This document shows, piece after piece, positions 8,574-25,782 of a stretch of 64,000 nt of DNA. The stretch comes from an uncultured Alphaproteobacteria bacterium (lineage in GTDB: Bacteria; Pseudomonadota; Alphaproteobacteria; Sphingomonadales; Sphingomonadaceae): the NCBI GenBank assembly GCA_963736595.1, contig CAVTPG010000001.1, positions 91,284 through 155,283 of the forward strand. The letters run 5' to 3'. Made by a program: the position numbers and the translations under genes. Position 1 is the first letter of the stretch; each line of letters begins with the position of its first letter. The notes below the pieces were generated by a model that saw only the letters and a program-made list of their open reading frames with translations, was not told the DNA's origin and ran no database searches.

Positions 8574-8602
8574 AGCGACCATTTGCTGGCCAGTTGACCG
8601 CT

Positions 8603-9877
8603 ATGGACACGATTTTTGCACTGTCGAGCGGATTGCCTCCTGCGGCCATTGGCATCATCCGGATTAGCGGGCCTGATGCTGGCGCTGCTTTGAAGGCAAT
8701 GGCCGGTGGCCTGCCTGACCCGCGCAAGGCAAGTCTTCGCGCGTTGCGCAGCGCGTCGGGCGAACTTCTGGATCAGGCGCTGGTGCTGTGGTTCAGCGGC
8801 CCCGACACATCAACTGGCGAAGATCTGGCGGAGTTGCATTGCCACGGGGGCCGTGCCGTCATTGCTGCTGTTCTTCAGGCGCTTTCGGCAATTCCCGGAT
8901 TGCGAGCGGCACAGCCCGGCGAATTTACCCGCCGCGCTTTTGCCAATGGCCGGATCGATCTGGCCGAAGCCGAAGGACTTGCCGAACTTCTCTCCGCCGA
9001 AACCGAAATGCAGCGTCGTTCCGCGCAAGCCTTGTCGTCCGGCGCCTTATCGAGCCAAACTGAGAAATGGCGTGACCAAGTGCTGAGATTATCCGCTGCG
9101 GTCGAAAGTGTGCTGGATTTTGGCGATGAGGACGATGTTAGCGATTTGCCGCCTGATTTTGCCGAGAAGACAAGCGCGCTGGCGCGCGAACTTGAAACAT
9201 GGCTTAACCGTCCGCGTGCCGAAAAACTGCGCGAAGGCGTGCGTGTCGTGCTGGCCGGGCCGCCCAATAGCGGAAAATCGACACTTTTCAATGCTTTGTT
9301 TCAGGAAGCTGCGGCGATTACATCTGCAACGGCTGGGACGACGCGCGATGCAATCGAGCGACCAATTTCGCTCGCCGGTGTGCCGTTGGTGCTCATCGAT
9401 ACGGCTGGCTTGCGGGACGATGGCGCAGATGAGATCGAGGCAATCGGTATTGCGCGGGCGCAGGAGCAGTTGGAGCGCGCCGATATAATTCTTTGGCTGG
9501 GGCCCGAAGGCGAGGGGCCGGATCATGCCATCGAGGTCGCGGCGCGGATCGATGAGGCCGTTTTGCCGGTCAAGCAATCGCCTGACTATCGCGTCTCGGC
9601 AAGAACAGGCGAGGGGCTGGAGGACTTGCAAGCGGGTCTTGCTGATCGGGCGCGCGCAATTCTGCCAAAGATGGGTGATGTTGCGCTAAACAAGCGACAA
9701 GCTGACTTGATTAGTGACGCACAATTCGCGCTAAGTACAGTTGCGCAGCTTCACGATCCGCTGTTGATTGCTGAAAATCTGCGTAGCGCGCGCGCCGCAT
9801 TCGACAGGCTGATCGGGCGATCCTCGACCGAAGATATGCTCGACACTTTGTTTGGGCAATTTTGTATTGGTAAGTGA
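8603..9877 (+). CDS. mnmE: tRNA modification GTPase MnmE
   Basis: [37 protein letters not shown]-terminus. Confidence 0.98.
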
Positions 9878-9878
9878 C

Positions 9879-9894
9879 TGTTCCACGTGGAACG
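9879..9894. promoter_or_regulatory. parS site
   Basis: TGTTCCACGTGGAACG with perfect 14-bp palindromic core, just after the mnmE stop. Confidence 0.9.
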
Positions 9895-9945
9895 TTTCCG
9901 AAATCGCTAGACGCCTTCAGACTAGCGCCGTATTTGGGTACCCAA

Positions 9946-11818
9946 ATGGCAAATTACGATATCCTTGTTGTCGGCGGCGGTCACGCCGGCGTGGAAGCGG
10001 CTGCGGCTGCTGCGCGCATGGGTGCGCGGGTAGGGTTGGTCAGCTTCGATCTCGACGCTATCGGCGCGATGAGCTGCAATCCCGCAATCGGCGGTTTGGG
10101 CAAAGGGCATCTGGTTCGCGAAGTCGATGCCTTCGATGGATTGCTAGGCCGTGCGGCCGATGCTTCTGCGATCCATTACCGAATGCTAAACCGCTCCAAA
10201 GGATCCGCTGTTTGGGGGCCACGCATTCAAGCCGACCGCGTATTGTTCAAAGCCGCCGTGCAGGCAATGCTGAAAACGCAGGGCGATCTTTCGCTGATAC
10301 AGGGCGAAGCCACGGAGCTGATCCTGAACGGCGATCGTATCGGCGGATTGTGCCTTGCCGATGGCACGCAATTGCAAGCGAAAGCCGTAATCCTTTGCAC
10401 CGGGACATTTCTGGGTGGCATTCTATATCGCGGTGAAGAGCGTTTGACCGGTGGCCGGATCGGCGAGGATTCCGCACAGCGCCTGGCCGCACAAATGCGC
10501 GAAGTCAGCTTGCCGCTCGCGCGACTGAAGACCGGGACACCACCGCGTCTTGACGGGCGCACGATCGATTGGGCGAAGCTGCCCGAACAACCGAGCGACA
10601 GCGACCAATGGACCATGTCGCCCATGACGCCGCATCGCGTGAACCCGCAGGTGTTTTGCGCGGTGACGCGGACCAATGCCCGTGCGCATGATTTGATTCG
10701 CAAGAACCTTGACCGCTCGCCCTTGTTCAGCGGTGCTATCGATGCGCAGGGGCCGCGATACTGCCCTTCGATCGAGGATAAAATTCACCGCTTCGGTGAC
10801 CGCGATGGCCATCAGGTGTTTCTGGAACCGGAGGGCCTATCCACACATATGATCTATCCCAACGGGATCAGCACGTCGCTGCCGGTCGATGTGCAGCTTG
10901 GGATGCTGCGCTGTATGGATGGCTTGGAAGCGGTCGAGATGGTGGTTCCGGGCTATGCGGTCGAGTATGATCACATCGATCCGCGCTCGCTGAATGCTGG
11001 GCTGGAGATGGAGGGTGTCGCAGGACTCTATTGCGCAGGGCAGATCAACGGCACGACGGGCTACGAAGAGGCTGCGGCGCAGGGCCTGATTGCGGGCAGC
11101 AACGCGGCAGCAAAGGTGATGGGACGTGAGGCACCACCAATCGATCGCAGCAATTCTTATATGGCGGTGATGGTCGACGATTTGACGCTGCACGGTGTGT
11201 CGGAACCGTACCGGATGTTGACTGCGCGGGCCGAGTATCGGCTGCGATTGAGGGCGGGCAATGCCAGCACGCGATTGACTGCAATGGGCATTGAGGCCGG
11301 ATGTGTCGGTGATGAACGTGCGGAGTGGTTCAAGCGCCGCGAAGACGAGCGAACAGGATTGGAAGTCGCTTATGGACACACAAGTCGGCGCGAAGGAGCT
11401 TGCCGAAAAGGGCTTCGATGTAAAGCGCGACGCTGGAAATAAGCCGCTCTCCGAATGGGTCGCAATGGGCAAACTCGACGCCACCGACGTTACGCAATGG
11501 TCGGATCGAACCTTCGATGCCGAGAGCGAGCTTGCCACCGAGATTATGGAAGATGCCAGCTACGCGCCCTATTTGGCACGACAGGATTCCGAGCTGAAAG
11601 ATCTGCGCGCGAGTGCATCGGTCGCGATCGGCAGCCAGTTTCCCTATGCGCAAGTTCCGGGGCTCTCGAATGAAATGGTTGAGCGCTTAAGCGCAGCACG
11701 ACCCGCAACATTGGCCGATGCGGGGCGCGTTTCGGGCATCACGCCAGCAGCAATGGCTGCGCTTCTAGTGTTCGCTCGGCGATTGCAGGACGAAGTAAAA
11801 AGCGGTGAAGCAGCTTGA
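9946..11818 (+). CDS. mnmG: tRNA uridine-5-carboxymethylaminomethyl modification enzyme MnmG, +1 frameshift near 11345-11372
   Basis: [44 protein letters not shown]. The C-terminus (VPGLSNE..RP.T..GITPAA) is in the next frame; removing one base gives ~623 aa. Confidence 0.95.
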
Positions 11819-12429
11819 TATTGACGACTGAAGCAGAGGCACGCGCTTACGTAGCGGAGCAAACCGACGCCGCGACAATGGAAAAGCTGGAACTATTTGT
11901 AGGCTTGTTAAAAAAAGAGAACCAGCAGCAAAATCTGGTTTCGCGCGGATCGCTCGAACATATTTGGCTCCGACATATAGCCGATTCGGCGCAACTGCTG
12001 CGCTTTGTTCCACGTGGAACGTCTTGGCTTGATCTCGGAAGTGGCGCAGGCTTGCCGGGTGTAATTCTATCGCTGCTGAGGCCACAAGATACTGTTACTC
12101 TTGTAGAATCCAGAACAAAGCGTATCGAATGGCTTGAGCGAATTGTAACAGAATTGACTCTGCCAAATTGTGACATTCGCGGGGATCGATTGGAAAATCT
12201 TGATACGACCAAAGTCGGGGCGATCAGCGCAAGAGCATTCGCGCCTCTGCCTCGACTCATCCAATTGGCGGAACGGTTCTCCACAAAAGACACCATCTGG
12301 GTCTTGCCGAAAGGCCGATCTGCGATAGAAGAGTTAGATAGCTTGCCAAAGCGGTTAAAAAATCTGTTTCACGTGGAACAATCGCTGACAAGCGAAAATG
12401 CGGGAATTTTGGTCGGAACAGGCCTCTAA
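11815..12429 (+). CDS. rsmG: 16S rRNA m7G527 methyltransferase
   Basis: NLVS, RHIADS, DLGSGAGLPG, SARAF; mnmG-rsmG-parA synteny. Confidence 0.96.
   Translation: MILTTEAEARAYVAEQTDAATMEKLELFVGLLKKENQQQNLVSRGSLEHIWLRHIADSAQLLRFVPRGTSWLDLGSGAGLPGVILSLLRPQDTVTLVESRTKRIEWLERIVTELTLPNCDIRGDRLENLDTTKVGAISARAFAPLPRLIQLAERFSTKDTIWVLPKGRSAIEELDSLPKRLKNLFHVEQSLTSENAGILVGTGL
12006..12021. promoter_or_regulatory. parS site inside rsmG
   Basis: TGTTCCACGTGGAACG, identical to 9879-9894. Confidence 0.9.
12365..12380. promoter_or_regulatory. parS site inside rsmG
   Basis: TGTTTCACGTGGAACA, 15/16 match to TGTTTCACGTGAAACA. Confidence 0.9.
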
Positions 12430-12453
12430 GGGCCAGAAATGCGATGATTTAAG

Positions 12454-13236
12454 ATGATCACTATCGCAATCGCGAACCAAAAAGGCGGTGTTGGAAAAAC
12501 GACGACTGCGATCAATATCGCAACCGCCATGGCCGCAACAGGCTGGAAAACCTTACTTATTGACCTTGATCCGCAAGGGAATGCGTCGACCGGGTTGGGC
12601 ATACGCTCGGACGATCGCGCGATTTCCAGTTATGATCTTCTGGTCAATGGAGCAAAAGCTGCTGATTGTGCACGACCCTCGGAAGTTCCGAACCTCGACG
12701 TCATTCCGGCAACCGTCGATCTGAGCGGTGCAGAGGTTGAGCTTGTGACCGTTGAGAACCGCACGTCGCGGCTGACGGAAGCGCTCAACAAGTCCGGCGG
12801 AATGCCGCATGACGTATGCTTCATCGACTGTCCGCCATCGCTTGGGCTTTTGACGCTGAACGCTTTGAGTGCCGCCGATACTCTGCTCGTCCCGCTTCAG
12901 TGCGAATTTTTTGCACTTGAAGGGCTAAGTCAGCTTTTGCAGACGGTCGAGCGCGTTCAGCAGCGCTTTAACGCCGATTTGGGCATAATTGGCATCGTTT
13001 TGACCATGTTCGACCGCCGAAATCGCCTGACTGACCAAGTTGCGGACGATGTGCGCGATTGTCTGGGCAAGCTGGTATTCGATGCCGTTATTCCGCGCAA
13101 TGTGCGTCTGTCGGAAGCGCCCAGCCATGGGCTTCCCGCGCTAATTTACGACCATAGCTGTACGGGAAGCCGCGCATATATGGCGCTGGCCAGCGAACTC
13201 ATCACCCGTCTGCCAAAAACGAGGATAGCCGCATGA
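12454..13236 (+). CDS. parA: chromosome partitioning ATPase ParA
   Basis: NQKGGVGKTTT, DLDPQGNA, DCPPSLG, IPRNVRLSEAPSHG. Confidence 0.97.
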   Translation: MITIAIANQKGGVGKTTTAINIATAMAATGWKTLLIDLDPQGNASTGLGIRSDDRAISSYDLLVNGAKAADCARPSEVPNLDVIPATVDLSGAEVELVTVENRTSRLTEALNKSGGMPHDVCFIDCPPSLGLLTLNALSAADTLLVPLQCEFFALEGLSQLLQTVERVQQRFNADLGIIGIVLTMFDRRNRLTDQVADDVRDCLGKLVFDAVIPRNVRLSEAPSHGLPALIYDHSCTGSRAYMALASELITRLPKTRIAA

Positions 13237-14213
13237 GCAATGCCTACGAACCGATCCGCTTGTCTGGTGCAAAGCCGGGTGCGATCGACCGCAAACGAAA
13301 ATTGGGCAAGGGTTTGGGCGCGCTATTGGGTGAAACCCGACGTGAAGAGCCGCTTGCGCACGGTCGCGCTGATGATAGCGTTACGAACCAGTCGGATATG
13401 CCGACTGACGGCGCATTAATCCATGTCCCGATCGCCGATATAACGCCGCTGCCGGGTCAGCCACGCACGCATTTCGACGAAGATTCGCTGAACGAGCTGG
13501 CCGCCTCGATTGCAGCGCGAGGCGTTATTCAGCCAATCCTCGTTACGCCGCTGACCAAGGGCAAATATCAACTTGTTGCGGGTGAGCGACGTTGGCGCGC
13601 GGCGCAGCGTGCCAAGTTGCACGAAATTCCCGCCGTCGTGCGCTCACTCGATATGCGCGAGATCATGGCTCTGGCGCTGATCGAAAATTTGCAGCGCGAA
13701 GATTTGAACCCGCTGGAAGAAGCGCGCGCTTATAATCGCCTGGCCGATCAAGATGGATTGACCCAGTCTGAAATTGCCAAGCTGGTCGATAAATCACGCA
13801 GCCATGTCGCGAATATTCAGCGCCTGTTGGCTTTACCTGATGATGTGCAGGAGATGGTCGGCAATGGCGCGCTGTCGATGGGCCATGCGCGAGCGTTAAT
13901 CGGCCATGATCGGGCGAGCGAGTTGGCGCGCGATGCTATTGCCGATAATCTTTCGGTTCGCGATGTTGAAAAGCGTGTGCGGCAATCGAAGAAACCCTCG
14001 CGCAATAACGATACAAATCGGCAGAAAACTGGCGAAAATGCGCCGGATAATGCGGATATTGCCGCCGTGCAATCGCATTTGGAAGAGTTTTTGGGACTTT
14101 CGGTCAAGATCAAAACCGATGCCGATCCCAGCAAAGGCTCCGTCGCGATTTCCTACCGCACACTTGATCAGCTTGATCTGATTTGCCAGCGTTTAACCGG
14201 CGGAAATCTCTAA
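13233..14213 (+). CDS. parB: chromosome partitioning protein ParB
   Basis: LGKGLGALL, QPR, AGERRWRA, ENLQREDL, HTH. Confidence 0.97.
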   Translation: MSNAYEPIRLSGAKPGAIDRKRKLGKGLGALLGETRREEPLAHGRADDSVTNQSDMPTDGALIHVPIADITPLPGQPRTHFDEDSLNELAASIAARGVIQPILVTPLTKGKYQLVAGERRWRAAQRAKLHEIPAVVRSLDMREIMALALIENLQREDLNPLEEARAYNRLADQDGLTQSEIAKLVDKSRSHVANIQRLLALPDDVQEMVGNGALSMGHARALIGHDRASELARDAIADNLSVRDVEKRVRQSKKPSRNNDTNRQKTGENAPDNADIAAVQSHLEEFLGLSVKIKTDADPSKGSVAISYRTLDQLDLICQRLTGGNL

Positions 14214-14318: not shown

Positions 14319-16917
14319 GTGCCGAAATTTCTGCCGCAATCTTTGAAACAGCGGGCCGACGAGTTGCGGCCGTTCGTGATTGCGGTGCTGGTGGCGGTCA
14401 TTTTTACGTATCTCAGCGGTACGGCTGTGTTTCGTATCGCCGATGGCTTGATGTTCGATGCTGCATCCACGCGCGCTGCTCCGCAAACCCCGAGAGTGCT
14501 ACTAATCGAACAGGACGCAGCCTTTGAGAGCATGGGCGGTGCGAAATACGATCGCTTGGTCCAAAGCGCAGCGAGAGCCGGGATCACACGCATTGGATTT
14601 GCGCAGGCTCCGCGTGACTGGGTGGGCAGCGACGACAACAAGCCCGCCATACCTGTTGTGGTCGGGATGCCAGCTCAGCGGAAACTAGGGGGCGATGTCT
14701 GGTCGCTCGATCCTGAACTGCGCACTCGCCTACCCAAAGCGGTGCAGCCGGCAGCAAGTGTGATCGCAGCATCCGATTACGGCATCTATCGGCGTCAAAT
14801 TACGGCTTTATCGACTGAGGATCGATTAATACCGACATTCGAAGCCGCGTTGTCTGGACGCGCCGTCGAAAGTCGATCATTTTTATGTCCAGATGTCCCG
14901 CGATCAAAGCATCCCGCGAGCGAACGCCTCACAGATGATTGCTGGAGATTTCAGACAAGGAAGTTTTGCAGGGATGGTGGCAGTCGTCGAACCCTCCAAG
15001 CAGCTACGGGAGCGCCGCTTTACCACGCCATTGACACCGCTAAGCCAAACCACCAGCGCCAGTGTATTTCGTGCCAATATGGTTCAGAACTTCCTTGATG
15101 GTAGGGCTGCACATAGTCTCGCGGCGTGGCAAAACTTCCTGCTTGTCATGGTTAGCGCCATGATCGCGGTGCTGGCTTTGCGATCGGTCGATGCCAAGCG
15201 GGTTGTGCTGTTCGTCATAGGCATCGGTGCGATATTGGTCATGGGGGCCGGATGGCTCGCTCTGACCATTATCAGCGCAGTTTTGCCCGTCTCGGCAATG
15301 CTGGGCGCGCTTTTGGTATCCGCCGCCACAATGGTTCTGTTGCGGGAGCATTCGCAGGATGACCGCCTGAAATCCGTCCTGGAGCGGGCAATCGGCTTCT
15401 CTTATTCGCGGTCGATACTAAACGAGCAAGCGCACCTGTCGCATTTCGTAACTGCTGCCGCTCGCAATTTGGCAATTGATAACAGCGCCGTGTTTCAATT
15501 TCGCGGTGATGGAGAGCCGCTTTACAAAGAAAACTTCGGATTTACGCCGCATGAAATGCCGGATGAAAAAACCCTTCGATTACTTTCCAAGCGCACAAAA
15601 CGAACCGGAACGGTGATCGATGTCAGCAATAAGATCTCGTCAAGAACCGAAACGAGCCACTATATAACGCGGCTTGATAATGCCGATGTGCCAACGTTCT
15701 GGTTCTTTTCAGTCAACGAAAGCGGAGATCCGGCGGCGCTTAAGCGCATCACCGATCAGGCGCAGGATATCGCCAAAACTTACGCGCGGTTTTATCGCTG
15801 GCGCGCTGATTTGTCCGCCAGCGACAGCCATGCGCGCCGGTTTCAGCCGATTGATCGGCAGATCGCCAGCGCCGCGTCGCTGATTTCCACGCAATCGGAG
15901 CAAATGCGCGAGGGGATCGAACACCTTAATACTGCGGTTGCAATTTATCACGTGGGCGGCTTTCCGGTTCATGCCAATGCGGCGATGCAAAATCTGTATG
16001 GCGATGCGGAATTGAACCTTGCGCGGGCGTCGCTGAGCGAGGCCTTGCTTACGCTGACCACATTGGAAGAAGAAGCCGTGCAGCTCCTGATCCATGACTT
16101 AATCGTTTCCGGCAGAGAAGTGCGCGTACCTGCCCGAGAATTTACTGCCAAACAGCGCATTTTGCGCATCGCAACACATCGCGATGAGACGCCTGACAAG
16201 GGTTGGCTGAACCTCATTATACTGGAAGCGCTCGACATTTCAGAGTTAAATAAGCTGGCCAATTTGCGCCATGCGGTCGGAAATTTCGTCGATAAGCAGC
16301 TTCGCAATGATTTGGAGGCGCTGGAATTCGGGGCCGATGTCGCCTTGTCGCACGCGGCAGAGATGCCTGGCCTAACCAAAGTGTTGAACCGGATACGCGA
16401 CGTTTCGCAGCGGGCGACCGGACGCCTGGATCAGGTTGCAAGTCTGCTTGACGATGCCAGCGGCACGAATCTTGAAGTTTGCTATCCAATTGACGCGCGT
16501 AAGGTGGTCGAGGATGCGTTTGAGCGCGTGCGGAATAAGGCAGAGGATTTCGAAGTCGATGTGGCGCTCGACCTGCCGGGAATCAGCGGCTTTACGATGG
16601 CCGAACCGCAGGTTTTGCTCGAAACGATAGAAGCCATGATGAACGTCGTTATTGCGGACACGCCACATGGTGGGTCGATGCGAGTATCATTGCATGAAGA
16701 GCGCGACAGTTCGCGGCTCGAAGTAACGGGCGGCATCGGCATTCCGTTCGAGCGGCTGATTGCGGCTTTCGATGCCGGGCAAAGTGAAGTTCCGGACGAG
16801 TTTCACGCCATTTCCATCGGTATCGCCAACGCGATCACATGGAAGGGGCAAGTCAGTTATTGGAGTTCCGTCGGCAAGGGCTATCGGTTCGTTATAAAAT
16901 TGCGGCGGGTTGGATGA
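14319..16917 (+). CDS. CHASE2-like membrane sensor with degenerate histidine-kinase core, +1 frameshift at T5 run 14880-14884
   Basis: N-terminal TM, periplasmic region (DGLMFD..PRVLLIEQD), three further TMs, PAS-like segment (VHANAAM), H-box-like VDKQLRNDL, C-terminal SSVGKGYRFVIKL; ~865 aa after removing one T. Confidence 0.7.
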
Positions 16918-17300
16918 TGGCGGCGCGAATACTGATTGTGGACGACGACGATCTGCTGTGCGAGATGTTGCAGGCGATGCTGGAAATGCACGGCTATGCC
17001 GTTGCAATTGCTGCCGATGGCGAGGCAGGCCTGAAATTGCTGGCTGAACAAGCGATCGATCTGGTCATTCTGGATCTCGTCATGCCCCGCATGGATGGAT
17101 TGCGTTTTTTGCGGGAGCTGCCCGACAGGATTGCCAATCCGCCGCCGATATTGATGGCTTCAGCTTCGGCAACCCCACAAATGCAGGCGCTTCACACCAA
17201 TTCGGGAGTGGCCGGAATCATCCGCAAGCCGGTGAAGTCGCAGATTTTGCTGGAAACCATCGAAACGGTGCTAGCCAAGCGGAATTCAATCGGCGCATAA
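16914..17300 (+). CDS. single-domain (CheY-like) response regulator
   Basis: ILIVDDD, LDLVMPRMDG, SA, KP; ATGA overlap with upstream stop. Confidence 0.93.
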   Translation: MMAARILIVDDDDLLCEMLQAMLEMHGYAVAIAADGEAGLKLLAEQAIDLVILDLVMPRMDGLRFLRELPDRIANPPPILMASASATPQMQALHTNSGVAGIIRKPVKSQILLETIETVLAKRNSIGA

Positions 17301-17313
17301 AGCACGCGCCACT

Positions 17314-19893
17314 ATGACTATTCCATTATTTCCCGAAGGCGGCCTTGCCAGCTCGGTCATCACGACCGTGTGGGTTGGCGTGTTCGTGCTGTGCTTCTTC
17401 AATTTGCGTTTCGGATGGGTTTTATCAGGGCTGGTCGTGCCGGGATACCTCGTGCCGCTGCTGATCATAAAGCCGCTGGCAGCGGGAATTATCGTCGTCG
17501 AAGCGGTGCTGACTTTCCTGCTCGTCTGGGTGTTTTCGGAAAAGATCGGCAAGGGCCGCTGGCCCGCTTTATTCGGGCGCGACCGGTTTATGGGGCTGAT
17601 TTTGGCTAGCATCGCGGTGCGGTTGACGCTGGACGGGTTCGCCTTGCCGGTGCTGGCTGACTGGCTGGCCGAAAACTGGAATCAGGAGCTTGACTGGCGC
17701 AGCGATTTGCAAAGTTTTGGACTGGTGATTGTGTCGCTGCTGGCCAACCAGTTTTGGAAGCCGGGGCTTACGCGCGGATTGTTCGCGATGATTGTCACGG
17801 TCGGGCTGACACTGTTAATCGTGCGGTACGGATTGATGGAATTCACCAATTTCAGGATCAGCGGCGTGTCCTACTTGTATGAGGGGCTGGCCAGTTCGAT
17901 CCTCGCCAGCCCCAAAGCCTATATGATTTTGGTGCTGACTGCGATGTATGCCAGTCATATGAATGTTAAATACGGGTGGGATTTTTCGGGCATCCTGATC
18001 CCGGCTTTGATCGCGCTGCAATGGTATCAGCCGACCAAAATCCTGACATCTTTTATCGAAGCCGGCATCATCTATTTGATTGCGATTGCCGTCCTGAAAC
18101 TGCCGATTTTCGCCAATAGGACGATGGAGGGAGGCCGCAAACTGCTGCTCTTTTTCAACATCAGTTTTGCTTACAAGCTGATCCTAGGGCATCTGCTGGT
18201 TCTGTTTGCGGTCGAGGTGAAAACAACGGACCTGTATGGGTTCGGATATTTGCTGGCGACGCTGATTGCAATCAAGGCGCATGATAAGCAGATATTCCCG
18301 CGCTTGATGCGAACGACATTGCAGGTTTCACTGGTGGGAGCAGTCGCGGGAAACCTTTTTGGTTTGTTTTTATCAACCGTTCTGCCAGTTGCAGGGGCCA
18401 ATCTGGCAAATGCGCGCATCACGGAAACCCCTTCCAGCGTGAGTGCCGAAAAGCAGTTGGCAGCTTCTGCGATCGGCAATGCCTATCTACAGCGGTGGCA
18501 GGGTGGAGCCGCGCCTATCAGCCGTCAGTCAGCCGATACGTTAACCGATCTGGTGCGATTACTGGAAGCTGGGTTGCCGCCAGTCGAGGCTAATGCGCGG
18601 GCCAGCGCAAGCGGATGGCAAGTCGTGACGTTACCGGGAAATGTCATTGCGATCATGCGTTCGGATGGGTTGGGCGGCGACTTACTGCTGCATTATCCAT
18701 CGAGCCGTGGAGCGATCGCAATCAACGCACCACGTCCGGCAAGCGCGCCTGGAACCGCGATGGCGGCCTTTGCTTTGCGCGTAAATCAGGATGCCCGTTG
18801 GCTGGTTTTAAGCGCGCCCATTCAACCCGAAGCGATCGGTCAACCCTCGGTACTGGCAGCATTCCGTTCAGGCAGCAGCTTGCCGGAATTGGATATCATA
18901 GCCGCGACGAACAGTAACTTTGCGATAGCGCAGCCCATAGTCGAGGTTGCTGGGCGGTCTGCAGCGGACATCGATATTCAAGCGCTGCGTGCGGCGATCC
19001 CGTCGCTTCAAGTGCGTTTCTCGCCTAGCGACACGACCGAAAATACGCGCGGCGATGGCGCTGTTATTCGCTTGCCCAAAGCCGATATTGCGCGATTGGC
19101 ATCCAGTCTGTCGCCCACTAGTCCGCAAAGCGCAGGCCGCTGTACCGTCAGTGCCCTCGCACCGGGCGCACAGCCGATTAAGGACATGGCCGATCTGGCA
19201 TTCCTTCGCGGAGAAGTGGCCGAGCCGGTCTTGTCCGCCATATCAGGCGAGCCGATTCCGGAGACATCGCGGATTGCGGCGCAATGGTTGGGGCTTGGCC
19301 TGAATGACTGTATCGATGATGATGGAGCGCCGCTGTGGCATCTGGCCTCGGATTTGCGGAGCGCCGGGCATTATTTCTTCGCACCCGGCCTTGCAACCGG
19401 GCGGATCGTCCACGGCTTTGCCGACGCGCAGACCGAAGGCGATGATGCCTCGCAATTCGACCGGAATGCCGTCCGCACAGCACGCGATTTCCGGCGAAAC
19501 TGGGGTGCCGGGATCGCAATGATCGCGCCAACCCAACAGGATTACGGCGGCTCGCAAATGACGGCATTCGGCGTCATCAATCAAAGCGCCATTCGCGCGC
19601 TTGGCAATCGCCCCGGTGCAATCGTCCAGCTTCGGACCCCGCCAAGCGCCGCCGATCTGAAGATTGCGCAAGGCTCTGCTTATGTCCTGTCCGGGCGGAT
19701 CCAGCGGAGCGATACTCTTGCCGACGAGGTCGAAGCGGCTTTGCGGAGCGGGGGCTACGATGTGTCGCGAATTGCGCGGCAGCAAGGGACCGCCGGGATC
19801 GAAGCGCCGCCGGAAAATTCGCTGCGCTATGTGTCGCAATCACGCAACAAACGCTATGCCGTTGTCCTGATCCCCGCAGAGCAAGCGCCATGA
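17314..19893 (+). CDS. PgsC/CapC-family polytopic membrane protein (two CapC repeats) with large C-terminal extracytoplasmic domain
   Basis: SGLVVPGYL..LFGRDRF..SFGLVIVSLLANQFWKPGL resembles B. subtilis PgsC (AGLVVPGYL..LYGRRKF..GIGIIVPGLIANTIQKQGL); second repeat SGILIPALI..EGGRKL..GFGYLLATLIA. Confidence 0.85.
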   Translation: MTIPLFPEGGLASSVITTVWVGVFVLCFFNLRFGWVLSGLVVPGYLVPLLIIKPLAAGIIVVEAVLTFLLVWVFSEKIGKGRWPALFGRDRFMGLILASIAVRLTLDGFALPVLADWLAENWNQELDWRSDLQSFGLVIVSLLANQFWKPGLTRGLFAMIVTVGLTLLIVRYGLMEFTNFRISGVSYLYEGLASSILASPKAYMILVLTAMYASHMNVKYGWDFSGILIPALIALQWYQPTKILTSFIEAGIIYLIAIAVLKLPIFANRTMEGGRKLLLFFNISFAYKLILGHLLVLFAVEVKTTDLYGFGYLLATLIAIKAHDKQIFPRLMRTTLQVSLVGAVAGNLFGLFLSTVLPVAGANLANARITETPSSVSAEKQLAASAIGNAYLQRWQGGAAPISRQSADTLTDLVRLLEAGLPPVEANARASASGWQVVTLPGNVIAIMRSDGLGGDLLLHYPSSRGAIAINAPRPASAPGTAMAAFALRVNQDARWLVLSAPIQPEAIGQPSVLAAFRSGSSLPELDIIAATNSNFAIAQPIVEVAGRSAADIDIQALRAAIPSLQVRFSPSDTTENTRGDGAVIRLPKADIARLASSLSPTSPQSAGRCTVSALAPGAQPIKDMADLAFLRGEVAEPVLSAISGEPIPETSRIAAQWLGLGLNDCIDDDGAPLWHLASDLRSAGHYFFAPGLATGRIVHGFADAQTEGDDASQFDRNAVRTARDFRRNWGAGIAMIAPTQQDYGGSQMTAFGVINQSAIRALGNRPGAIVQLRTPPSAADLKIAQGSAYVLSGRIQRSDTLADEVEAALRSGGYDVSRIARQQGTAGIEAPPENSLRYVSQSRNKRYAVVLIPAEQAP

Positions 19894-20693
19894 GCCTGAC
19901 CGCAATCCTGCGCCTGCTCGCCGTGGGGGCAATCATTCTGGCTGTGGGTGTTGGAAGCTGGATGACGTCGCCACGCATCGCGGAACTGCTGGGCGCTTCG
20001 GAAGAAGGCGCACGCGACCGGGTGGCTTTAAGCGACCGCACCCTGGTATATCGGTTGAAAGATGCCCGCACCACGCGCTTCGTTTTCTCGCAGCCCAGCA
20101 CCATTGCACGGGTTTTATCGACGCCCGCGATTGCCGAGGCCGTCTGGGATGACGGCACACGCTGGAGCTATGGCTACCGCGTCACCTTGCGCGACAGCGG
20201 CGATAATATGGTCGCGTCCCACGATATTTATTCCAGCGCCGCCAATCCGGCAAACCTAGAAGAACCGCTGAATATCGTTCGGTTCACACGCGGCGGAACG
20301 GGCGGCATCGGCACGCAGGATCAGGCCGTAATTGCCTCGGACACACCATTTGTTGCGATGGATATTGGCCCATTGCCCTCAGATAAAGGCGTCGACGCAG
20401 TGTATGTCCGCGCTTACGAACGTCGCCCATTTCTAGGCGGTGCGGCGGCGCTGGCGGCCTATCGCAGACGCAGCGATGACGAACGCGAAGTGCTGACCCG
20501 CGCAAATGCCTTCCCCGAGCGCTTTATCAGCAATGCGGAACGACAAAACAGCGTCATCAACCAGTGGCGACCGCTTGGCCCGTCCGGTATATCGGGCCGC
20601 GACTATGACGTGCTGGTCATGTATAAAGGCACGCTCGACAGCGAGGCGGAAGACGGCGACGATGGAGATGGCGACGATGGAGAGGGTGGCTGA
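19890..20693 (+). CDS. hypothetical membrane-anchored/exported protein with acidic tail
   Basis: N-terminal hydrophobic helix; start/stop overlaps on both sides; tail DSEAEDGDDGDGDDGEGG. Confidence 0.8.
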   Translation: MSLTAILRLLAVGAIILAVGVGSWMTSPRIAELLGASEEGARDRVALSDRTLVYRLKDARTTRFVFSQPSTIARVLSTPAIAEAVWDDGTRWSYGYRVTLRDSGDNMVASHDIYSSAANPANLEEPLNIVRFTRGGTGGIGTQDQAVIASDTPFVAMDIGPLPSDKGVDAVYVRAYERRPFLGGAAALAAYRRRSDDEREVLTRANAFPERFISNAERQNSVINQWRPLGPSGISGRDYDVLVMYKGTLDSEAEDGDDGDGDDGEGG

Positions 20694-21553
20694 TGGCGCG
20701 GCGCAAATGGCTGCTCCTTTTGGGGATCGTGATTGTGGCGTTTAGTGCAGCCATGCTGGCAGGCCTGTTCCCGCCGCTGCGTTCCAGCAACGGGTTCGAG
20801 CGACCGGGCGCAGTGGACTTGTCGCGCGCAGAGGCGATGTTTGCCGCTGGGCTTGGCGCTCCCAAATCAAGCGAATGGCGTGAGGCGGCGAGCGATCTTG
20901 GCTGGCAAGCACGCGATGCAGAAGGATTTGCGCAACTCGTCGAACCATCTGGGAATTGCCAGGGGCGCGGCGTGTACCTCATCGGTTTGTCGCCTGATGC
21001 TGCGCCAACCGCCATGACTGCCCCCCATCGCGGGGCCGACAAGCATACTGGAACACTGGCGGCCATGTTCGCAGAGGAAGGCAAGTTGGCTGCTGCAGCG
21101 TGGAATTCCGCGCCTCGCCGAAAATCCGCAGAGTGCGATGCTTTTGGCGATCTGGCAAAGGCGGAGGAGCATTTTTTCACGGCCTTTGCCCTAAGTTTTG
21201 CGCAAGCCTACCCGCAAGGCCGCGTCGTGCAATTGCACGGTTTCGATCGCGACAATCGCCAAAGTCTTGCGGGAAGCGAGGCCGACATCATTATCAGTGA
21301 CGGGACCGATCAGCCGGGCGACCGCTTGCTGGCCTTGTCGGAATGCCTGACGATCTCGCTGCAGGCGTGGAACGTGCGCGTTTATCCGCTCGATGCGCCG
21401 GAACTGGGCGCGCTTAAAAATGCACAAGGCGCCGCGTTGCGAGAGCAGGGTTTTGAGGGATTTACCCATATTGAAATGAGTTTGAACTTGCGTCTCGCCT
21501 TACGCAAAGACACGGGATTACGCGCACAATTCCTCAACTGTTTCAAAGCATGA
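20693..21553 (+). CDS. membrane-anchored putative zinc hydrolase, PghP (poly-gamma-glutamate hydrolase)/N-formylglutamate amidohydrolase-like
   Basis: Ordered motifs TAPHRGAD, VQLHGF, THIEMS..LR; N-terminal TM. Confidence 0.6.
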   Translation: MARRKWLLLLGIVIVAFSAAMLAGLFPPLRSSNGFERPGAVDLSRAEAMFAAGLGAPKSSEWREAASDLGWQARDAEGFAQLVEPSGNCQGRGVYLIGLSPDAAPTAMTAPHRGADKHTGTLAAMFAEEGKLAAAAWNSAPRRKSAECDAFGDLAKAEEHFFTAFALSFAQAYPQGRVVQLHGFDRDNRQSLAGSEADIIISDGTDQPGDRLLALSECLTISLQAWNVRVYPLDAPELGALKNAQGAALREQGFEGFTHIEMSLNLRLALRKDTGLRAQFLNCFKA

Positions 21554-24500
21554 GCAATCAGGCCATGCTGCTGGCCACGCCGTGCCGTATCAATGCGGCG
21601 CTGGAAGTCGGCTTGCCTGAAATGCTGTGCGGCACTTACGCCGATATTCACGAATCGATTGCGCATTTTGCCGCGCAGACGGGCGATCACGACGCGGTCG
21701 GAAATTTCACCGATCATGCCAAGACGCTGATTGCTTTCGTTAAGCACCGCTTAGGTCATATCGGTGATCTGCATGATGCCGCCGCGCTGTTCAATGCGCG
21801 CTTTGCCAATGCTCTGGACCGCGCAGCAGAGCGGGCCGCAATTATGGATTTCGCCGAACGGCTGGGCGCTGACGCTGCGCAACTTGAGCGCGACAGGAAG
21901 GCATTCGACAGGTTCTTCGACGGCGATGCCGTGAGCGAACGATATCGGCGGCGCGTCGGAGAAGCCGAGCGCGAATTGGCTCACACAGTGGAGCGGCTGG
22001 GCCTGGTCGCCGGTGAGGCGTTGCGTGTCGGTGAAATGGCCGGTGATGACGAGTTGTTGAGCAAAGCAATTGCCGGCGTGCTGACGGATGCGCGAAGTTA
22101 TCGCGGGGATGCGCGCGTCAAACAAGCGGGGTTCCGCGCGTTGCACCATATTGGCACAGGCGCGCTCGAACCGCTAACCGGCTTTTGGATCGACATTGCC
22201 ATTCGCGACACTCGGCGGCTGGCGCTGGACACGAGCGAAGACACCTGGGCGCAATGCGATGCGTTTGCCACCTTGCTCACGATGGCGCCCGGCTCGCTCG
22301 AACCCGTGTTGGAGCGGCGATTAGGCAAGTCCAGTCTGGAAGGCCCTCCCTTGCGGCAGGAGAACCGGATGTTCGTGCGGCGCTATCTGGCCGATCTGCT
22401 GTGCGAGGCCGTGCCGGATCACCCGAAGCTGTCGAAATATCTCAGCCGGATCGCCAATGATCGCAACGGCGCGGTTCGGCAGGCGCTGGCCAAGGCGCTG
22501 GTCAAATTGCCGCGTGACGAGGCAAAACCGCTCGTGTCGCGATTGCGAATCGATCAGGATCCGCAAGTCCGCGCGATGCTGTTCGCGCAGCCGCAAGCGA
22601 TGGCGCAAACGATCGGCGGCGCCATGTATCGCTCGCATATCATCCGGGTTCTGTCGCGCGATGAGGACACTCATGTTTTGCGGATGGCGATGGATGCGGC
22701 GGTTAAGCTGGTCGCGTGGCAAGGTGGGCATGAGCCAGCCCAACAGGCCGAAAGTGTTACGCAATTGCGACAGGCGCTTAGTGTGTTGCGGGCGCGCAGC
22801 ACGGCGGCCAATAGGCGGCGCTGGGCAGGCGAAGCGATGGAGCGGATCTGGCTTTATTCAGACGCCGATGCGCTGGATATGGCGGAATATATCCGTTTTC
22901 AAATGGCAGCCACTGCCGAGGGGCAGCGTCGCAAATTGCCCGAGCTAGCCGATGTGGCCAAATCTGATCCGCATTTCATCGGACGCATTATGGCCGTTCT
23001 GGCGCAGGATGGGTTTGGGCTGGAGTTAATTGCCGGATCGGTGCCGCGAATGCAAAAAGGGGAGCGATTTGCACGTCGGTTGTGGCGCATTCTGTTCGAG
23101 TTGCGCGTCTCCTCGACCGACAAACGACAGGCCTTCCTGCACACGATCGGGCGCAGCTTGCCCGGAACGATCTCTGCCCCGGCCGCGCATATGGCCGAAC
23201 TGGCTCCGACCAAGGTTCCGGGTGAGCCGCTGCATTTTGCCGATGAGGGCGGGTGGCGCAATTATCTGCCGCTGGTCGATCATGCGCTGGCAGCGATCGA
23301 TCGAGGCAAGACAACGCGCATTTTCACCAGTGAAGGCGTGACGTCGCTGACCGCTCCATCAGGCGTGCTCGCGCGCATTACCGCCTATTGGCAGGTCAGT
23401 CGCAACTTCGCTCGGCTTGCGGCATTGCGCAATCAGGGCGGCAGTTCAGACTATGTCGACGCGTTGCGCCAATATGGCCTGTCGGTCGAATTCCAGGCGC
23501 ACGACGCATATGAAGCGCCGCTTTTAACACCGCAAAAGCAAACTGCGCTTAAGTTCGATCAGCCACAAACCGCCAGCGATCCCGAAGTGGTCAGATTATT
23601 CGATCTTGGCGGCGTGCTAATCGCCGTGCCGGTGCTGCTAAAAAGCGCAGCAGCATACTTTGCCACGGTTTTTGCCAACACGCTGGGCCAGCTTGCTTTG
23701 TTTCTGCTGCTTGCAGGAGGATGGTTCGTCGGACGCCACCTGTATCTTGGCTACAAGGCGCGCCGCTATCGCAATGCAATCCCTCTGTCGCTGGGTGGCT
23801 GGGGAACGCGCGGTAAATCCGGGACCGAGCGGCTGAAGGCGGGGTTGATCAATGCTTTGGGCCACCCGCTGGTGTCGAAAACGACAGGTTGCGAAGCGAT
23901 GTTCCTGCGCGGCGAGCCATTTGGCGGCCTCACCGAAATGTTTCTGTTTCGCCCGTATGACAAGGCGACGATCTGGGAGCAGTTTAATCTGATCCGCATT
24001 TCCGTCGGGCTAAAGGCGCGCGTATTTTTGTGGGAATGCATGGGCCTTAACCCGTCCTATGTGCGGGTGCTGCAACGCGACTGGATGCGCGATAATATCG
24101 GTACCATTACAAATACTTACCCTGACCATGAAGACGTGCAGGGTCCGGCAGGGCGCAACATCCCTGAAGTAATGCGCGAGTTCATTCCGGAAAACTCCGT
24201 GCTGCTGACAACCGAAGAAGAGATGCTGCCGATCCTGCGCGAAGGCGCGGCGCAGGCCAATACGCGAATGCGCGCGATCGATTGGCGCGAGGCGGGTCTG
24301 GTGCATGAAAATCTACTCGCGCGGTTTCCCTATGCCGAGCATCCCTATAATATCGCGCTGGTGGCGGCGATGGGGGATGAGCTGGGTCTGGGCGAGGATT
24401 TCTGCATCAGAGAAATGTCCGATCGCGTGGTGGCAGATTTGGGCGTGCTAAAAATCTATCCGCAAGCCAATGTCGATGGGCGCATTCTGGAATTCGTGAT

Positions 24501-25782
24501 GGGGATGAGCGCGAATGAGCGGTTCGGCGCAATGGGAAATTGGGACCGGATGGGCTTTGCCGACCATGATCTTGGCGAAGATCCGGCAATTTACGTCAGC
24601 ACCGTGGTCAATAATCGCGCCGACCGGGTGCCGCGATCGCAGGTCTTTGCGCGCCTGTTGGTGAATGACATATCAGCGGACAAGCATTTCCTGATCGGAT
24701 CGAATATCGATGGACTGATCGGATTTATCGAGGAAGAATGGGAGGCTTATGCAGCGCGCCTGAGCCTGGAAAGCGATACAGACGACACACCTGCCGAAAT
24801 TTTTGAGCGCCTGGCGCGCCAGCAACGTGTGCCGCTGAACCAAGAGCAAATAGAGCGGCGATTGATGGCGATGCTGACAGCAATTGCCGATAATGAGCGG
24901 GCAAATACGCTGGTCCGCGCTGCGCGTGAAGGCCAACTCGCTGCATCTTTTACCGATGATGAGCGCGCACTGGGTGAGCAGATCTCCGAAGAACACGCGG
25001 AAATGGTTAAATCGCTAGAGGAGTATCAAGCGCTATCTAGCGTAATATCGAAAGGTGGCGCGGCGGAACATTTGGCGCGCGTTCGTGCATTCCTGCACGC
25101 TGCTTTCATGCGCAAACTGGTTCCGGTTCGCGATGTTCACATGTCGGGTGAGAATATCGTGCGGCTGATCGCGCATCATTCACCGCCGGGCCTGACAAAT
25201 CGCATTATGGGGATGCAGAATATCAAAGGGACGGGCCTGGATTTTGTCTATCGCTGGCAAGCGTGGGAGCAAGTGCATCGAGCGTGCGCGCAGGCGCGTG
25301 ATGCGGATCCAATGGTTGCGGAAAAGGGCTTGTCTGCGCTGGCCGGCTTTCAGGAATATGGCATTTTAAGCGGAAGCGAGGTTCGCCGCACAATCGCCGA
25401 ATTGCAAATCCGCGACGAACTGCCCGTATCGTTCACGCCCGCGCAGCTTGATGCGATTATTGCGCGCGTCGATACGCAGCTTGGCGAACTGGACGCGGCG
25501 GCGCGAATGGACGGCGAGGAGGCAGGCAGCGCAAGCATCCCATCACGGTTTGCTGGCAGGGTGGTCGAAATCGTGGAAGCCTTTGTCGATGCGGGCGATG
25601 CCGTGCGCCGCCGCCGGCAAGCCGATGCGATTTATAAAGCCATGATTGCCGAGCAGATCAGCAGCCAGCGCGCCGCGCTGGAATTGAAAAAACTGACGAT
25701 GCGGCAAAAGGGTGGCTGGCTGGCCGAATCAATCACCCAAGGGCAAGGCCGATTTGCGAGCCTGTTCCGGCGCTCTGCCTAA
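21550..25782 (+). CDS. HEAT-repeat + PgsB/CapB poly-gamma-glutamate synthase-like amide ligase fusion (1410 aa)
   Basis: GTRGKS..RL, KTTG, EQ, ECMGLNP.Y, TN..PDH.DVQGP, MSANE, NNRADRV.RS, GMQNIKG match PgsB motifs in order; HEAT-like repeats DRNGAVRQALAKAL, DQDPQVRAML. Confidence 0.88.
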   Translation: MSNQAMLLATPCRINAALEVGLPEMLCGTYADIHESIAHFAAQTGDHDAVGNFTDHAKTLIAFVKHRLGHIGDLHDAAALFNARFANALDRAAERAAIMDFAERLGADAAQLERDRKAFDRFFDGDAVSERYRRRVGEAERELAHTVERLGLVAGEALRVGEMAGDDELLSKAIAGVLTDARSYRGDARVKQAGFRALHHIGTGALEPLTGFWIDIAIRDTRRLALDTSEDTWAQCDAFATLLTMAPGSLEPVLERRLGKSSLEGPPLRQENRMFVRRYLADLLCEAVPDHPKLSKYLSRIANDRNGAVRQALAKALVKLPRDEAKPLVSRLRIDQDPQVRAMLFAQPQAMAQTIGGAMYRSHIIRVLSRDEDTHVLRMAMDAAVKLVAWQGGHEPAQQAESVTQLRQALSVLRARSTAANRRRWAGEAMERIWLYSDADALDMAEYIRFQMAATAEGQRRKLPELADVAKSDPHFIGRIMAVLAQDGFGLELIAGSVPRMQKGERFARRLWRILFELRVSSTDKRQAFLHTIGRSLPGTISAPAAHMAELAPTKVPGEPLHFADEGGWRNYLPLVDHALAAIDRGKTTRIFTSEGVTSLTAPSGVLARITAYWQVSRNFARLAALRNQGGSSDYVDALRQYGLSVEFQAHDAYEAPLLTPQKQTALKFDQPQTASDPEVVRLFDLGGVLIAVPVLLKSAAAYFATVFANTLGQLALFLLLAGGWFVGRHLYLGYKARRYRNAIPLSLGGWGTRGKSGTERLKAGLINALGHPLVSKTTGCEAMFLRGEPFGGLTEMFLFRPYDKATIWEQFNLIRISVGLKARVFLWECMGLNPSYVRVLQRDWMRDNIGTITNTYPDHEDVQGPAGRNIPEVMREFIPENSVLLTTEEEMLPILREGAAQANTRMRAIDWREAGLVHENLLARFPYAEHPYNIALVAAMGDELGLGEDFCIREMSDRVVADLGVLKIYPQANVDGRILEFVMGMSANERFGAMGNWDRMGFADHDLGEDPAIYVSTVVNNRADRVPRSQVFARLLVNDISADKHFLIGSNIDGLIGFIEEEWEAYAARLSLESDTDDTPAEIFERLARQQRVPLNQEQIERRLMAMLTAIADNERANTLVRAAREGQLAASFTDDERALGEQISEEHAEMVKSLEEYQALSSVISKGGAAEHLARVRAFLHAAFMRKLVPVRDVHMSGENIVRLIAHHSPPGLTNRIMGMQNIKGTGLDFVYRWQAWEQVHRACAQARDADPMVAEKGLSALAGFQEYGILSGSEVRRTIAELQIRDELPVSFTPAQLDAIIARVDTQLGELDAAARMDGEEAGSASIPSRFAGRVVEIVEAFVDAGDAVRRRRQADAIYKAMIAEQISSQRAALELKKLTMRQKGGWLAESITQGQGRFASLFRRSA

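Follow-up and report, generated by a model that had tools for sequence, protein, structure and literature searches.

Work on the synthesis of poly-gamma-glutamate (PGA) has been confined almost entirely to Bacillus and a handful of further organisms, with small PgsB proteins, and the initiation, elongation and export of the polymer are still unclear. In the PgsBCA(E) and CapBCADE systems of Bacillus, the PgsB/CapB subunit (TIGR04012) is a protein of about 390-460 residues in which an N-terminal membrane helix is followed by an ATP-dependent amide ligase of the Mur fold with a P-loop and E-C-M, N...D-H and N.R.DR motifs, and a CapC/PgsC gene lies nearby. All of these features recur in a much larger protein of 1,410 residues (P0001), here called the giant ligase, which is encoded in a 64,000-nucleotide stretch of DNA (the window; contig CAVTPG010000001.1, positions 91,284 to 155,283) from an uncultured alphaproteobacterium of the Sphingomonadaceae. 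The genome assembly (GCA_963736595.1) comprises 2.29 Mb in 11 contigs and is 89% complete. We describe the giant ligase as the signature enzyme of a widespread gene cluster of two-membrane bacteria that probably makes a polyglutamate-like polymer.

The giant ligase differs from canonical PgsB/CapB in having an N-terminal module of about 700 residues (the N-module), which is most likely cytoplasmic, a helical insertion of about 115 residues and a C-terminal extension of 163 residues. Unlike in Bacillus, the CapC partner is doubled and extended, neither CapA nor CapD nor PgsE was found in the locus, the cell is bounded by two membranes, and the operon contains proteins of uncharacterised families together with phosphorelay parts. 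Folylpolyglutamate synthase (FolC/FPGS) and the MurC-F ligases, with only 10-13% identity to the giant ligase, are soluble, do not polymerise on a membrane complex, have N-terminal substrate domains of their own and possess neither a membrane anchor nor a HEAT module. The M domain of cyanophycin synthetase CphA1 is likewise a Mur-ligase-type domain building a non-ribosomal amino-acid polymer (Foldseek E ~6e-6), but CphA1 is soluble and multi-domain, includes an ATP-grasp domain, yields another product and lacks a membrane partner of the CapC type. The HEAT-repeat scaffolds compared with the giant ligase were the PP2A A subunit, the symplekin N-terminal domain and E. coli YibA. A survey of capsule systems reported CapB plus CapC in most phyla and did not describe the giant form (PMC5542703), and our literature search, which combined PgsB with HEAT, cryo-EM, AlphaFold, Proteobacteria and the carrier genera, returned no description of a HEAT-fused or giant PgsB.

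The PgsB/CapB-type ligase domain

The gene contains no stop codon within its 1,410 codons, and its closest database homologue, from Parapontixanthobacter (Altererythrobacter) aurantiacus, is also 1,410 residues long and 69% identical over the full length, which places the organism in the Erythrobacteraceae. An earlier reading of the window, made from the sequence only, had called the product a CapB/PgsB-type ligase with extra modules. Both the reading frame and the motif positions given there are exact: GWGTRGKSGTERL occupies residues 750-762, GTRGKS residues 752-757 (nt 23803-23820), KATIWEQ residues 805-811 and GMQNIKG residues 1221-1227 (nt 25210-25230). The classification is borne out as well, and residues ~718-1247 are a divergent PgsB/CapB-type Mur-fold amide ligase. 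In hmmscan, the PgsB equivalog model of NCBIfam, TIGR04012, matches residues 738-1074 with an E value of 1e-53 (182.5 bits), and a genome-wide search with the same profile finds the giant ligase at 185.7 bits (E 6e-55). When a profile of 45 giant-family members was compared with one of 13 canonical PgsB/CapB proteins by hhalign, residues 718-1075 aligned with canonical positions 2-347 at a probability of 100% (E 3.3e-38, ~27% identity). The P-loop R-G-K-S, K-T-T-G, E-Q, E-C-M, N...D-H, G-P and N.R.DR are invariant in both families; nothing points to a dead enzyme. The giant family also has invariant motifs of its own, namely GWGTRGKSGTERLKA, FRPYDKATIWEQ and GMQNIKGTG (G1221, Q1223, N1224, I1225, K1226, G1227 and G1229). 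The substitutions that the sequence-only reading had linked to a possible change of substrate are signatures of this family, and the idea of an altered substrate finds no support.

The predicted structure agrees with the assignment. Both the central ATPase domain and the Rossmann-like C-terminal domain of the Mur ligase superfamily are present in the giant ligase. The predicted structure of a canonical 399-residue CapB cluster superposes on the model of the giant ligase over 390 of its 399 residues (template-modelling score 0.89, root-mean-square deviation 2.8 Å), covering model residues 512-1037 (residues 722-1247) with ~136 residues looped out. From this span the canonical fold is predicted to run from the membrane helix through the GMQNIKG loop to the next helix; the superpositions of Mur ligases and of canonical CapB both end at residues ~1237-1247. 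For the counterpart of the canonical tail motif GNIHG, sequence matching is ambiguous, since the tail of B. anthracis CapB favours GMQNIKG, that of the Streptomyces protein favours VRDVHMSGE, and a local profile comparison weakly favours VRDVHMSGE (E 0.005, probability 7%). We gave more weight to the structural superposition, by which GMQNIKG is supported as the modelled counterpart. Neither a PDB sequence search nor a structure search turned up a solved PgsB structure, and phmmer with the whole giant protein gave no match among PDB sequences.

Additional modules, membrane topology and natural split forms

A structure model of 1,200 residues (residues 211-1410; residues 1-210 lie outside it) was built on a 65-row alignment and has a predicted template-modelling score (pTM) of 0.86 over the whole chain, which suggests that the N-module and the ligase keep a constant position with respect to each other. 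The sequence-only reading had seen a HEAT-repeat region of ~680 residues in the N-module. This holds in part. Residues 211-453 form a HEAT-like solenoid that in the model shows the helix-pair architecture by which HEAT-type proteins are recognised, while residues 460-650 are a separate alpha/beta domain. At the sequence level the HEAT character is below threshold: HEAT_2 (PF13646) scores 21.4-22.7 bits against a gathering score of 27.7, the match is confined to residues 276-342, and no Pfam HEAT family (PF13646 or PF02985) matches the giant ligase above its gathering score. Some homologues of the giant ligase have precomputed PF13646 or PF02985 matches.

Outside the ligase, no part of the protein is better conserved than the alpha/beta domain, with 2.5-3.2 bits per column and 17 invariant positions, among them W512, R513, E517, K525, R526, H531, E550, P557-G-E-P560 (including E559), R570, R627 and N628. 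It matches no family in Pfam, NCBIfam or PHROGs, where searches with 70 family members gave only scattered single matches. Its profile found only chance-level similarity among PDB sequences (E 0.16 or worse), and a language-model Atlas search with residues 470-680 gave no usable match.

Two further additions flank the last part of the ligase fold. The helical insertion, claimed in the earlier reading at 24740-25080, is real and was placed close to that position by alignment with pXO2 CapB and a Streptomyces PgsB together with the model; its sequence is poorly conserved (1.2-2.0 bits per column). The C-terminal extension had been estimated at ~170 residues and is nearly that long. It bears a conserved basic motif, EAF.DAGDAVRRRR...RQKGGW (residues 1343-1391, nt 25576-25722), with a conservation of ~3.0 bits across residues 1351-1390.

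Between the N-module and the ligase lie two hydrophobic segments, which the sequence-only reading took for a transmembrane hairpin. Both segments exist, but the first has a predicted local distance difference test score (pLDDT) of only 31-52 and reaches a Kyte-Doolittle value of 1.6 or more in just 6.5% of 138 relatives, whereas the second is hydrophobic in 91% of them and forms a long, confidently modelled helix. This second helix aligns with the N-terminal anchor of canonical PgsB (by hhalign and by Atlas superposition) and directly precedes the P-loop. As judged across the alignment, only the second segment is a family-wide membrane helix and the first is specific to the clade. A cytoplasmic location of the ligase agrees with the basic stretch that follows the membrane helix. 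The fused protein does not begin with anything like a signal peptide, as had been noted before, and the proposal that the HEAT region is cytoplasmic gains support from relatives in which the N-module is a separate protein: 23 of 24 such N-proteins have no signal-like N-terminus either, and 19 of 24 have no strongly hydrophobic window at all. The N-module is thus most likely cytoplasmic.

More than 1,000 database proteins share the full architecture, and the fused form occurs in at least 564 species-level genomes of the Alpha-, Beta-, Gamma-, Zeta- and Deltaproteobacteria, Planctomycetia and Magnetococcales, with carriers such as Thiomargarita, Halomonas/Vreelandella, methanotrophs and Competibacter. 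Among the carriers that can be cultivated are Parapontixanthobacter aurantiacus MCCC 1A09962, Qipengyuania atrilutea, Erythrobacter litoralis SNB-035, Halomonas daqiaonensis and Methylovulum miyakonense HT12. Within the GTDB family of the window the giant gene was found in only 9 of 200 sampled genomes, indicating a patchy distribution. An exhaustive search with residues 1-680 alone yielded 544 cluster representatives, of which the best 150 comprised 100 fused proteins, 24 split forms and 26 fragments. The N-region is therefore not normally a separate gene, the finding that the sequence-only reading had named as one that would count against it. Rather, the N-module is fused to the ligase in about four fifths of lineages and encoded by a separate, translationally coupled gene in about one fifth.

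The split N-proteins end naturally at a '...DP.V.RFF' boundary just ahead of the hydrophobic region, and the gene breaks fall just before the first hydrophobic segment. Split forms were confirmed in DNA at four loci (L008, L005, L006 and L093), where the split genes overlap or abut the ligase gene. At L008, a 668-residue N-protein is followed by an overlapping gene for a 727-residue ligase that is 48% identical to residues 701-1397 of the giant ligase. At L093 (G047:C26, 1166-5391), which comes from the same GTDB family as the window, the TGA of a gene for a 692-residue N-protein overlaps the ATG of the ligase gene; a split at the exact module boundary indicates fission even among close relatives. 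This recurrent splitting suggests that the N-module is an autonomous unit working with the ligase, and the high pTM of the whole-chain model points the same way.

Gene neighbourhood

The features of the giant ligase and the genes on its upstream side are collected in the table below. The ATG of the giant gene overlaps the TGA of the 286-codon gene for neighbour Y (ATGA), which fits translational coupling. No neighbour is linked to the giant ligase more tightly than Y, which is 36% identical to a 267-residue Roseomonas protein. No Pfam, PHROG or phage tblastn match was obtained for Y, and a reading of it as a PghP-like hydrolase has no sequence-level support. Neighbour X, for which Pfam gave no match, corresponds to the first ~235 residues of a protein of ~838 residues in other lineages, and its cluster was found in 58 loci. 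The CapC partner, three places upstream of the giant gene, carries its two domains in tandem, followed by a tail of ~500 residues that matches no family; its cluster was found in 56 related loci.

Features of the giant ligase and of the genes on its upstream side (positions in the window)
Feature	Residues	Position	Strand	Remarks
CheY-like receiver, single domain	128, from ATG 16914	16914..17300	+	PF00072 E 8e-26
CapC partner, two CapC/PgsC domains	859	17314..19893	+	domains at nt 17374-17775 and 17953-18300; PF14102 E 1e-37, above cutoff
Neighbour X	267	19890..20693	+	tblastn of the 838-residue protein of locus L004 matches nt 19896-20606
Neighbour Y	286	20693..21553	+	immediately upstream of giant ligase, translationally coupled; homologue in 47/49 long related loci
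Giant PgsB/CapB-type ligase, whole reading frame	1-1410	21550..25782	+	uninterrupted
N-terminal region	1-210	21550..22179	+	moderately conserved; conserved block around residues 88-151
HEAT-like alpha-solenoid	211-453	22180..22908	+	
Conserved alpha/beta domain	460-650	22927..23499	+	strands and helices, pLDDT ~85-95 in model
First hydrophobic segment	686-708	23605..23673	+	Kyte-Doolittle 1.92; possible weak or re-entrant membrane segment
Membrane helix and basic juxtamembrane stretch	712-743	23683..23778	+	Kyte-Doolittle 1.78; model residues 502-533
Mur-ligase-type catalytic core	744-1075	23779..24774	+	P-loop GTRGKS, E829-C-M, N855...D859-H860, N1021-N-R-A-D-R1026
Helical insertion in C-terminal ligase domain	~1076-1190	24775..25119	+	missing from canonical CapB/PgsB; helices at model residues 871-977
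Last beta-alpha units of ligase fold	1191-1247	25120..25290	+	invariant PPG...GMQNIKGTG motif (25210-25230)
Helical C-terminal extension	1248-1410	25291..25779	+	no counterpart in canonical PgsB; long helices, pLDDT ~85-95

A core of large CapC, X, Y and giant ligase recurs across 80 loci, which fall into two types. In the type of the Erythrobacteraceae and other Sphingomonadales, to which the window belongs, a kinase-like gene, a CheY-like receiver, CapC, X, Y and the ligase are followed by a convergent outer-membrane barrel gene, a REC-Hpt gene and a GAF gene. In the type of most other lineages, CapC, X (838 residues), Y and a protein Z of ~1,715 residues precede the ligase, and a receiver is nearby only occasionally. 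CapA (PGA_cap) genes adjoin the giant ligase or the giant CapC in a few lineages: in Silicimonas (L002, 4174-6516, 780 residues) the gene lies in the cluster beside the giant gene, and in two Competibacteraceae loci (L072 and L078, ~14.2 kb) it comes directly after it.

The start of the CheY-like receiver is most likely the ATG at 16914, which overlaps the TGA of the kinase-like gene (ATGA), and not position 16839; the orthologues start at the equivalent methionine. The kinase-like gene upstream (14319-16917, +) is apparently frameshifted near nt 14860. The 860-residue homologue from Silicimonas covers 14376-14864 and 14857-16908 in two different frames, matching the overlapping open reading frames 14319-15098 and 14893-16917; the frameshift may reflect an error of sequencing in the assembly or a genuine break in the gene. 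The genes mnmE, mnmG (gidA), rsmG (gidB), parA and parB (8594-14213, +) directly precede the polymer locus, which is an origin-proximal position, and a ParB homologue flanks the locus on the same side in several related Erythrobacteraceae loci.

Proposed polyamide synthase and alternative explanations

We think it fairly likely that the product of the giant gene is the catalytic subunit, an ATP-dependent amide ligase, of a polyamide synthase of the PgsBC type that is modified for a two-membrane cell, with the N-module as a dedicated partner. As to the product, the course of the chain through the first hydrophobic segment, the role of the N-module and the regulatory link, we infer the following. 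The membrane helix (residues 712-743) would anchor a cytoplasm-facing Mur-fold ligase (residues ~744-1247), which retains the Mg-binding Glu of canonical PgsB along with its P-loop and its N...DH and N.R.DR motifs. Together with the adjacent double-CapC membrane protein, this ligase would most likely join glutamate, or an amino acid closely resembling it, into a polymer with gamma linkages. Once past the inner membrane, the polymer would be taken over by X and Y and, in this clade, by the outer-membrane barrel. The N-module, with its solenoid and alpha/beta domain, would serve the ligase as a scaffold or as a platform for acceptor binding or control; that it is fused in most lineages and translationally coupled in the rest suggests that it acts on the ligase itself. 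In the Erythrobacteraceae, where the synthase genes follow the kinase-like gene and the CheY-like receiver on the same strand, synthesis would probably be under phosphorelay control. The linkage to CapC, the occasional linkage to CapA and the kept catalytic residues lead us to expect a polyglutamate-like product.

Several observations weigh against this proposal. The giant ligase does not reach the equivalog cutoff of TIGR04012 (222.7 bits), so it is not a PgsB orthologue in the curated sense and its substrate could differ. Pfam Mur_ligase_M (PF08245) was not detected in it at E < 0.01 and is carried by 120 of 120 canonical PgsB proteins among the matches listed, a difference that reflects sequence divergence, the fold being common to both. 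No CapA/PGA_cap (PF09587) match was found in the 89%-complete genome of the window, and Pfam and PHROGs scans recognised no PGA-degrading or PGA-anchoring enzyme in the locus. The topology of the fused form would require the weakly hydrophobic, low-confidence residues 655-710 to bring the chain back to the cytoplasm. The literature search found no biochemical data on any family member and no report of polyglutamate from the carrier organisms, the results for organism names having been judged without full texts.

Some of these points would also suit an enzyme that makes no free poly-gamma-glutamate, and instead ligates another amino acid or adds amino acids to a different acceptor, for instance a second kind of polymer or a primer linked to a lipid or to the envelope, so that the likeness to PgsB extends to the chemistry only. 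The score below the equivalog cutoff, the low identity to canonical PgsB, the family-specific invariant motifs and the missing CapA of the window's genome are in its favour, but the strict co-occurrence with CapC domains above the Pfam cutoff, the CapA genes that adjoin the giant gene in some lineages, the retention of the residues common to all PgsB and, in the models, the near-complete structural match to canonical CapB argue against it, and we regard this explanation as rather unlikely. Another concerns the alpha/beta domain, which might be a ligand-binding or catalytic unit. It might bind the acceptor or primer, in function like Mur domain 1 or the folate site of FPGS, or else sense a small molecule, in the manner of the sensors that control other exopolymer synthases. 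Its conservation, above all that of the charged invariants R513, K525, R526, H531, E550, E559, R570 and R627, would suit such a role, as would the fact that canonical PgsB has no equivalent of the N-terminal substrate domain of Mur ligases, and the confident whole-chain model suggests that the domain packs against the rest of the protein. Searches of Pfam, NCBIfam, PHROGs and PDB sequences, however, related it to no binding or catalytic domain already described, and canonical PgsBC functions without such a domain; we hold this role to be less likely than not.

HEAT solenoids are typical protein-binding surfaces, and the sequence-only reading had the solenoid dock a regulator such as the CheY-like protein for post-translational control. 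Spelt out, the phosphorylated receiver (16914-17300) or the REC-Hpt protein would bind the solenoid, and a phosphorelay would switch the synthase. The arrangement of the genes is consistent with this. In all Erythrobacteraceae-type loci the kinase-like gene and CapC enclose the receiver, which is encoded on the same strand, and its D11, D12, D54, S83 and K105 are invariant in 25 orthologues. In Silicimonas the giant gene is immediately preceded by a receiver gene, in Roseomonas it is immediately followed by genes for a hybrid kinase, a receiver, Hpt and GAF, and Pfam found no DNA-binding output domain in the locus, which makes a protein target plausible. Yet the N-module is conserved in every lineage, whereas among ~45 loci of the gamma/beta/zeta/delta type just 11 have a receiver-family gene within 10 kb; docking of a receiver cannot be its general function, and the conserved role of the module is probably intrinsic to the synthase. 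Moreover, its best-conserved part is the alpha/beta domain and not the solenoid. A complex prediction for residues 1-680 with the CheY-like receiver returned a score of 0.00, which is no answer and speaks neither for nor against binding. We consider the docking model unlikely, while clade-specific control by the co-transcribed receiver is possible.

A more far-reaching version of the proposed synthase seems improbable to us as a whole. In this version the giant ligase would be the hub of a new envelope-spanning polyamide synthase, and the alpha/beta domain a new acceptor-binding or signal-receiving domain that gates polymerisation. In the Erythrobacteraceae the gate would be operated by the phosphorylated CheY-like protein, giving the first phosphorelay-controlled, post-translational synthase of the polyglutamate type, and the product might differ from classical gamma-PGA.

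What is new here is the Erythrobacteraceae type of locus, which includes phosphorelay genes and an outer-membrane barrel, the count of fused against split forms (100:24), with a split in the window's own family among them, the clade-specific nature of the first hydrophobic segment and the delineation of the conserved alpha/beta domain. The model may show for the first time how a PgsB-type enzyme is built in its context, and the extra modules and natural split forms are handles on which parts talk to the ligase. A larger, strongly conserved relative of PgsB is present in hundreds of two-membrane species, among them ecologically important marine heterotrophs, sulfur oxidisers, methanotrophs and wastewater bacteria. 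Should its product prove to be an exopolymer like polyglutamate, biofilms and marine organic matter would contain a component so far overlooked, and a polymer in commercial use would gain a new source.

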